From the NCBI GenBank assembly GCA_964016885.1, contig OZ024753.1, positions 35,836,001-35,900,000 of the forward strand: 64,000 nucleotides of DNA, in the 5' to 3' direction. The stretch's first letter is position 1. The number at the start of each line of letters is the position of its first letter. The DNA comes from Eledone cirrhosa. Taxonomy: Eukaryota. The position numbers and the translations under genes are program-made. The notes below the pieces were generated by a model, which did no database searches, was not told the DNA's origin, and saw only the letters and a list, made by a program, of their open reading frames with translations. Below are positions 26,570 to 26,645 of this stretch, piece after piece.

Positions 26570-26645
26570 CGATTGGCTGCTTTCGGCGCGTGACCTCCAC
26601 CTGACGTTTTCATTGGTCAGTAACGGCGCGCTGAATTTAAACCCC
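26570..26645 (+). promoter_or_regulatory. Cell-cycle-type internal promoter (NF-Y x2, E2F-like, MYB, CDE/CHR)
   Basis: ATTGG 26572-76 and 26612-16; TTTCGGCGCG 26581-90; TAACGG 26621-26; GGCGCGC + 4 nt + TTTAAA 26625-41; about 125 nt upstream of the exon 1a ATG. Confidence 0.7.

Follow-up and report, generated by a model that had tools for sequence, protein, structure and literature searches.

The DNA analysed here, referred to as the window, is a 64-kb stretch (64,000 nucleotides) of the Eledone cirrhosa genome that carries the beginning of a TOP2 gene. A search of the genome with exon 2 of this gene returned one match only. Approximately 27 kb upstream of exon 2 lie two short coding exons, each with an ATG and an in-phase splice donor. 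The first (W exon) resembles the start of vertebrate TOP2B and the second (PL exon) that of TOP2A. A cluster of promoter motifs sits between the donor of the W exon (26400) and the ATG of the PL exon (26767), ∼170–240 bp behind the former and 125–195 bp ahead of the latter (Table 1). Use of the PL exon as a cassette exon was ruled out, as none of the 13 intervening AG dinucleotides opens an in-frame route from the W exon. The PL exon therefore needs a transcription start of its own. Judged by their frames and splice sites, the two are exclusive alternative first exons that feed one shared exon 2. Fragments of LINE-type reverse transcriptases occur upstream of the locus (window 5463–6185, 12014–14659, and 21876–23339), and minisatellites lie inside the TOP2 introns (59630–60060 and 60900–61980).

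Table 1. Features of the TOP2 locus and of the motif module in the E. cirrhosa window
Feature	Position	Strand	Basis and remarks
Head-to-head gene, first coding exon MAGSALRRLMAEYR	24831..24873	-	Sequence
CpG-undepleted domain over both promoters	24501..32000	.	CpG o/e mostly 0.7–1.6, versus mostly 0.1–0.5 in the gene body
Upstream promoter, probably bidirectional	24990..25130	.	YY1-like 24997, ATTGG 25052, TTTAAA 25073, CAACGG 25118
TOP2B-like "W" first exon, coding part MANDDVKWE	26373..26399	+	Sequence; phase-0 donor GAG/GTAAGA
Distal inverted CCAAT box (predicted NF-Y site), ATTGG at 26572	26570..26577	+	Sequence; strong by NF-Y context filter
E2F-like site TTTCGGCGCG	26581..26590	+	Non-canonical: fails strict TTSSCGS, passes only the widened TTS{2,3}CGS
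CRE/ATF-like TGACGT between both CCAAT boxes	26602..26607	+	Sequence; overlooked in the earlier note
Proximal inverted CCAAT box, ATTGG at 26612	26610..26617	+	Strong NF-Y context; 24 bp before the CHR
MYB-type site TAACGG	26621..26626	+	Overlaps the CDE by 2 bases; present, at chance frequency
CDE-like GGCGCGC	26625..26631	+	Matches the CDE code SGCGCGS (PMC4974476, excerpt)
CHR TTTAAA (predicted LIN54/MuvB site, TTYRAA type)	26636..26641	+	131 bp before the PL ATG; putative function, by analogy
TOP2A-like "PLK" (PL) first exon, coding part MPSSPLK	26767..26787	+	Sequence; phase-0 donor AAG/GTAAAT
Shared TOP2 exon 2	53728..53907	+	Phase-0 acceptor; 88% identity to O. bimaculoides TOP2

A second region with promoter-like features lies upstream of the W exon, whose promoter it presumably is. 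It contains a strong ATTGG with TTTAAA at +21, as well as CAACGG. Given this pair, the label "housekeeping-like" that the earlier note had attached to the promoter of the W exon is unproven. The region is shared with a gene in head-to-head orientation, which we take from its first coding exon to be UBE2G-like; a short-motif search found no further exons of this gene within 35 kb. If the W form starts at the upstream promoter, its 5′ UTR of 1.2 kb includes upstream open reading frames of 45, 42, and 16 codons (window 25183–26060). An in-frame stop 18 nt upstream rules out a mitochondrial extension of the W exon in E. cirrhosa. In-frame N-terminal extensions that by eye resemble mitochondrial targeting peptides are present in several other TOP2s (P0143/P0158, P0149, P0032, L149, and L215) and absent from the E. 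cirrhosa W exon.

The module itself is compact. The two ATTGG motifs are 40 bp apart, and the CDE-like GGCGCGC is followed, after a 4-nt spacer (TGAA), by TTTAAA, which leaves exactly 4 nt between CDE and CHR. The two inverted CCAAT boxes, the TAACGG, and the GC element with TTTAAA after 4 nt had all been recorded in the earlier note and lie where it placed them. The E2F-like site that it had listed is also present, but only as a match to the widened pattern, as the strict E2F core is not there. A word that we take to be ZNF143-like (CCCATAATG, window 26528–26536) lies directly upstream of the module, and a similar word is found in a PSMA6 promoter (L228). In mammals, TTTAAA is a functional variant of the CHR (PMC4176359, PMC4974476; here and below, statements from papers cited by PMC number refer to the excerpts available).

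To what extent such a cluster arises by chance was assessed with 3000 dinucleotide shuffles of the 367-bp intron stretch, using patterns that were defined after the site had been viewed. Taken singly, the motifs are weak (MYB, P = 0.46; CHR, P = 0.41; wide E2F, P = 0.32; two CCAAT boxes, P = 0.04). Combinations are rarer: two CCAAT boxes with a CHR were found in 58/3000 shuffles, the CDE-4-CHR arrangement in 9/3000, and two CCAAT boxes with both CDE and CHR in 0/3000, this last composite occurring once in the 64-kb window. Across the 3-Gb genome, a loose ATTGG-MYB-CHR pattern gave 61 matches versus 74 for the reversed control, and none of the six matches inspected was at an obvious gene start. 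Because the loose pattern is no commoner than its control, the cluster counts only through its position and through comparison. Two genome-wide patterns of two CCAAT boxes with a CHR did exceed their controls (295 versus 35 and 135 versus 42); the matches listed were mostly tandem repeats, and none of 15 non-repeat matches could be assigned to a gene. A large satellite with an 18-bp CCAAT-containing unit (G000:C1:7.2–8.6 Mb) swamps searches with CCAAT patterns. Separately, two paralogous starts (G000:C2:90849843 and C2:90960653; L141 and L142) carry ATTGG, GGCGC, 4 nt, and TTCAAA before a first exon that resembles a signal peptide.

These frequencies bear on one alternative, that short motifs have come together by chance in CpG-rich intron DNA or act as an enhancer for the upstream promoter, with a PL exon that is silent in E. 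cirrhosa. Each motif is indeed common on its own, the loose triple shows no excess, and the PL start is found in none of the 11 full-length Logan proteins in cephalopod clusters. Against this stand the intact PL exon, its phase-0 donor, and its match to the TOP2 gene model of O. bimaculoides, which starts with this exon (MASSPLK); the full composite is unique, and E2F and CCAAT elements recur at the equivalent position in unrelated animals, as described next. We consider this alternative very improbable.

For the comparison with other animals, a metagenome scan was performed with exon 2 as query, and among the best 80 of 563 loci, seven animal loci in which a first exon could be identified and sufficient upstream DNA was present were used in the motif test. 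The rest were set aside: L145 belongs to the lineage of L144, L191 has 156 bp of upstream DNA (with no E2F site seen in it), and others had no identifiable first exon, were transcripts, or were non-animal. The full order of W exon, an intron stretch of 160–170 bp, PL exon, and exon 2 is visible in L144 and L165. The remaining exons are less typical in some loci: the alternative exon of L215 is unusual, in L181 none was identified, and the upstream exon of L174 is without the W. Termite-like loci with seeming W and PL exons were rejected: their donors are weak, the DNA is poor in CpG, and a transcript in the database begins at another place.

An E2F site (TTSSCGS) was found within 300 bp before the alternative exon (in L181, after the W donor) in 7/7 of these loci, compared with 2/6 regions upstream of the W ATG and 0/7 following introns. 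Shuffle probabilities for the seven loci range from 0.008 to 0.19; for the three that had not been seen before the pattern was fixed, they are 0.116 (L165), 0.116 (L174), and 0.008 (L181), with a product of ∼1e-4. A CCAAT (NF-Y) box is present in five of the seven, or 6/8 when the E. cirrhosa window is included. The CHR also occurs in 6/8 loci, L165 and L181 being without it, but its background is 0.22–0.9 and there is no enrichment. At the homologous spot, L144 and L145 carry CTTGAA and TTTGAA, both known CHR variants. MYB sites occur in 3/8 loci with no excess over background, and the TAACGG, which the earlier note had listed in the module, is no commoner than chance; in human late genes, MYB sites are reported to be under-represented relative to CHRs (PMC4176359). 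Since E2F and CCAAT elements recur and CHR and MYB stay at background, the conserved core is E2F plus NF-Y.

This pattern would fit a real E2F/DREAM promoter of the G1/S or general quiescence-repressed type, in which TTTAAA and the MYB site are fortuitous matches and activity does not peak in G2/M: across animals, clear enrichment is confined to the E2F site, and two loci do without a CHR. Within E. cirrhosa, however, the CDE-4-CHR geometry is exact, and the spacing between CCAAT and CHR is common to other mitotic genes. Two CCAAT boxes 32 bp apart precede the predicted first coding exon of cyclin B, with TTCGAA 24 bp past the second; cyclin B3 has a CCAAT box followed by TTCAAA at +30, as does one CKS gene at +24, in each case before the predicted first coding exon. 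The distance in the TOP2 module, +24, is the same as in cyclin B and CKS. Cyclin A and the second CKS gene are without this spacing, which leaves three of five comparators positive, and neither cyclin E nor three proteasome genes have a strong CCAAT box with TTYRAA at +15 to +35, a distance window chosen after the hits had been viewed. In 388 kb not chosen for motifs, TTYRAA falls at +15 to +35 in 13/134 strong CCAAT readings, or in 8/129 without the five targeted sites. The first exons of the cyclins are predictions, and the exon-1 search for cyclin B yielded exon-2 fragments only; among the proteasome controls, 4/7 matches were internal exons and were dropped. Furthermore, more than 80% of human promoters with both E2F and CHR elements peak late in the cycle (PMC4176359). 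A G1/S-type promoter is, in our judgment, an unlikely reading.

The machinery that would read such elements is partly visible in the genome, which encodes LIN9 and a Myb C-terminal domain. LIN54 was not found in the genome search, the sole TCR match being without the tyrosine motif. A HORMA search for MAD2 returned HORMAD instead, and NUF2 was not found in the genome search. In the promoter of an intronless TFIIB-like gene (L064; G000:C18:26756916–26757790), the order of the CCAAT-CHR pair is reversed: along the gene, TTCGAA comes first and a strong CCAAT box lies at a distance of 22 bp.

Both starts can be followed well beyond E. cirrhosa. Among cephalopods, the TOP2 protein of Argonauta starts with the W exon (MMANDDAKWE), in addition to the PL start of O. 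bimaculoides noted above. Database gene models, all from species other than E. cirrhosa, record both starts as alternative isoforms in nine further genera of invertebrates, among them amphioxus. In molluscs and hemichordates (Mytilus, Mizuhopecten, Littorina, Ptychodera, and Glandiceps) the two are joined to the same exon 2, as they are in Branchiostoma, Apostichopus, Amphiura, and Anneissia. The models show the PL start alone in sea urchins, Lineus, Owenia, Saccoglossus, Solemya, and horseshoe crabs, and the W start alone in Sepia and Holothuria. With the PL start alone on record, sea urchins, Lineus, Owenia, Saccoglossus, and horseshoe crabs may rely on a single promoter for every cell type. 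Taken together, the sequences indicate that the two exons are real and old, with homologues across bilaterians. In a transcript-like contig (L207), a W-type start (…GILNWV) precedes an exon-2 start that is divergent, and an origin before the bilaterians is possible.

In vertebrates, the two starts are distributed over two genes. Fish and amphibian TOP2A proteins, the TOP2A starts compared here, begin with a PLK-type start, for example MATESPLK/ALFENK in Erpetoichthys, and TOP2B proteins have LTWV/TLFD at the start. The splice junction of human TOP2B after Val23 falls at the same boundary (PMC9592559). A tree of 26 TOP2 proteins, built with FastTree from sequences without the first exon, placed every invertebrate TOP2 outside the vertebrate clade (support 1.00), with amphioxus as its sister (0.99). 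All six members of the TOP2B clade (1.00) have the W start, and all six of the TOP2A clade (0.95) the PLK start, one of them reading PFK. Amphioxus, an outgroup from before the duplication, has both units, and each vertebrate paralog keeps one N terminus. Each paralog may thus have kept one of two ancestral promoter-exon units after the duplication.

A further alternative has the cell cycle regulating both promoters, or a PL promoter specific to germline or embryo, with exons that mainly alter the N-terminal strap. The presumed W promoter has its own ATTGG and TTTAAA pair and CAACGG, and E2F sites lie upstream of the W ATG in some of the animal loci. Among the stored TOP2 proteins, joining of the PL exon to exon 2 at 53728 makes [RK]xLF, which we take to be a cyclin-docking-like motif, in 21/24 distinct PL starts versus 0/27 W starts. 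The W exon of L144 ends in K, so that KxLF would form there too; of the distinct PL starts, just 9/24 contain a complete CDK site (S/T-P-L-K/R). In human TOP2B, the strap lowers the ATPase rate (PMC9592559). On the other side, the full-length Logan proteins of the cephalopod and holothurian clusters have the W start in 15/15 cases, a count to be read with the tendency of assemblers to favour the commoner form; this is the result expected if the PL form is restricted. The upstream promoter is also common to the head-to-head gene and has YY1-like sites, and vertebrate TOP2B, the keeper of the W exon, is described as uniform through the cycle (PMC6896119). This alternative we hold to be improbable as well, slightly more so than a G1/S-type promoter.

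The reading we prefer, and regard as probable on the strength of the motifs and their setting, is that the module is the PL exon's own proliferation-coupled promoter, with predicted repression by DREAM at the E2F/CDE-CHR sites and activation with NF-Y once cells cycle, and that the W exon likely supplies TOP2 elsewhere. That a promoter lies in front of the TOP2A-like exon, as the earlier note had proposed, is very likely, given the start of the O. bimaculoides model, the bilaterian homologues of the exon, the recurring elements, and the CCAAT-CHR spacing at three mitotic genes. Two of its points need revision. The grammar is not specific to vertebrates, as the term "vertebrate-style" implied, because DREAM peaks in C. 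elegans carry the same motif, a hybrid CDE/CHR (PMC5683655, PMC4176359). Nor are CCAAT boxes diagnostic, because human TOP2B also depends on two inverted ones (PMC13213696). A late-cycle peak of the PL promoter has, in our estimate, about an even chance. The report that Drosophila TOP2 is without cell-cycle regulation counts against the preferred reading (PMC6896119).

Under proliferation-coupled control of the PL exon, NF-Y bound to the two CCAAT boxes would support a transcription start, predicted near the CHR. The PL form would be silenced in resting cells by DREAM, with E2F contacting the CDE and LIN54 contacting TTTAAA, in the 4-nt CDE-CHR geometry of DREAM binding described in PMC4974476. 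In cycling cells, Myb-MuvB would take the place of DREAM at the module; the 2-base overlap of MYB site and CDE would suit such an exchange, the MYB site being no more frequent than chance. The upstream promoter would give rise to the W form. Binding at the module and its timing are modelled here on mammalian and worm work.

Comparison with known systems places the module in a familiar class. The promoter of human TOP2A contains five inverted CCAAT boxes, an ATF site, and GC boxes (PMC2673423), and the gene is listed as a CHR gene (PMC4176359). The E. cirrhosa sequence is alike in having inverted CCAAT boxes, an ATF-like site, and a CHR before the first exon of a TOP2A-type start. It differs in that its CCAAT boxes number two, its flanks are AT-rich, and Sp1 GC boxes are absent, and in that the module is internal to a single TOP2 gene, behind a TOP2B-type exon. 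With the CDE-CHR promoters bound by DREAM/MMB (CCNB1, with TTTAAA, CCNB2, and CDK1, and the DRM motif of C. elegans), the module has in common the SGCGCGS element, the 4-nt spacer, the TTYRAA element, and nearby CCAAT boxes. Unlike those promoters, in which conservation of the CHR is a published criterion, it has a CHR whose occurrence across distant animals does not exceed background, and the module is a candidate predicted from sequence. Human TOP2B resembles the W unit in its first exon, which ends in W-x at a phase-0 junction before TLF, and, in human, in its dependence on NF-Y. It is, however, a separate gene in vertebrates, whereas the W exon is the upstream exon of the same gene in E. 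cirrhosa, where the presumed W promoter differs also in carrying a CHR-like TTTAAA.

Sorting of alternative first exons between duplicates has a precedent in duplication-degeneration-complementation, e.g., in teleost mitfa/mitfb. As in that case, a pair of promoter-exon units that began in one ancestral gene is divided between paralogs. In contrast to it, the gene encodes a core enzyme, the state before duplication survives in many invertebrates, and the regulatory half of the proposal derives from motifs. We lean, by a small measure, toward the view that the bilaterian ancestor had one TOP2 with a constitutive W promoter and a nested E2F/DREAM/NF-Y promoter for the PLK start, and that the gnathostome duplication only sorted these units. 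Molluscs, hemichordates, echinoderms, and amphioxus would then keep the switch, and cephalopods would use the full CCAAT-CDE-CHR grammar. As a promoter, the module belongs to a known class; its setting, in a single bilaterian TOP2 whose two units would later have been split between TOP2A and TOP2B, is apparently new. A literature search in which few subscription journals were covered found no description of a nested cell-cycle promoter with a TOP2A-type exon in a single TOP2 gene, and earlier notice is possible.

If this view is correct, the division of labour between TOP2A and TOP2B began in one ancestral gene and is older than vertebrates. Organisms with a single TOP2 may not couple it to proliferation, according to one review, because one enzyme does both jobs (PMC6896119), and the gnathostome duplication is elsewhere credited with letting TOP2A specialise in division (PMC12897701). 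Regulatory specialisation would instead have come first, inside one gene, counter to these statements as they appear in the excerpts. The N-terminal strap is called unconserved between isoforms and species (PMC9592559); the two strap starts would, on the contrary, be ancient and conserved. The locus would also provide a proliferation marker at the level of isoforms and, for cephalopods, the first candidate for a cell-cycle promoter grammar, and the reading is testable on RNA-seq, CAGE, or single-cell data already available for mussel, amphioxus, sea cucumber, or octopus.

Two further observations concern cyclin genes in the E. cirrhosa genome. Five tandem ORFs with cyclin domains, each in an open frame of 333 codons, lie ∼1.8 Mb from the window (G000:C13:37684534–37741611). 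Upstream of cyclin B, ∼30 kb of sequence is nearly free of CpG (G000:C8:35234000–35264000).
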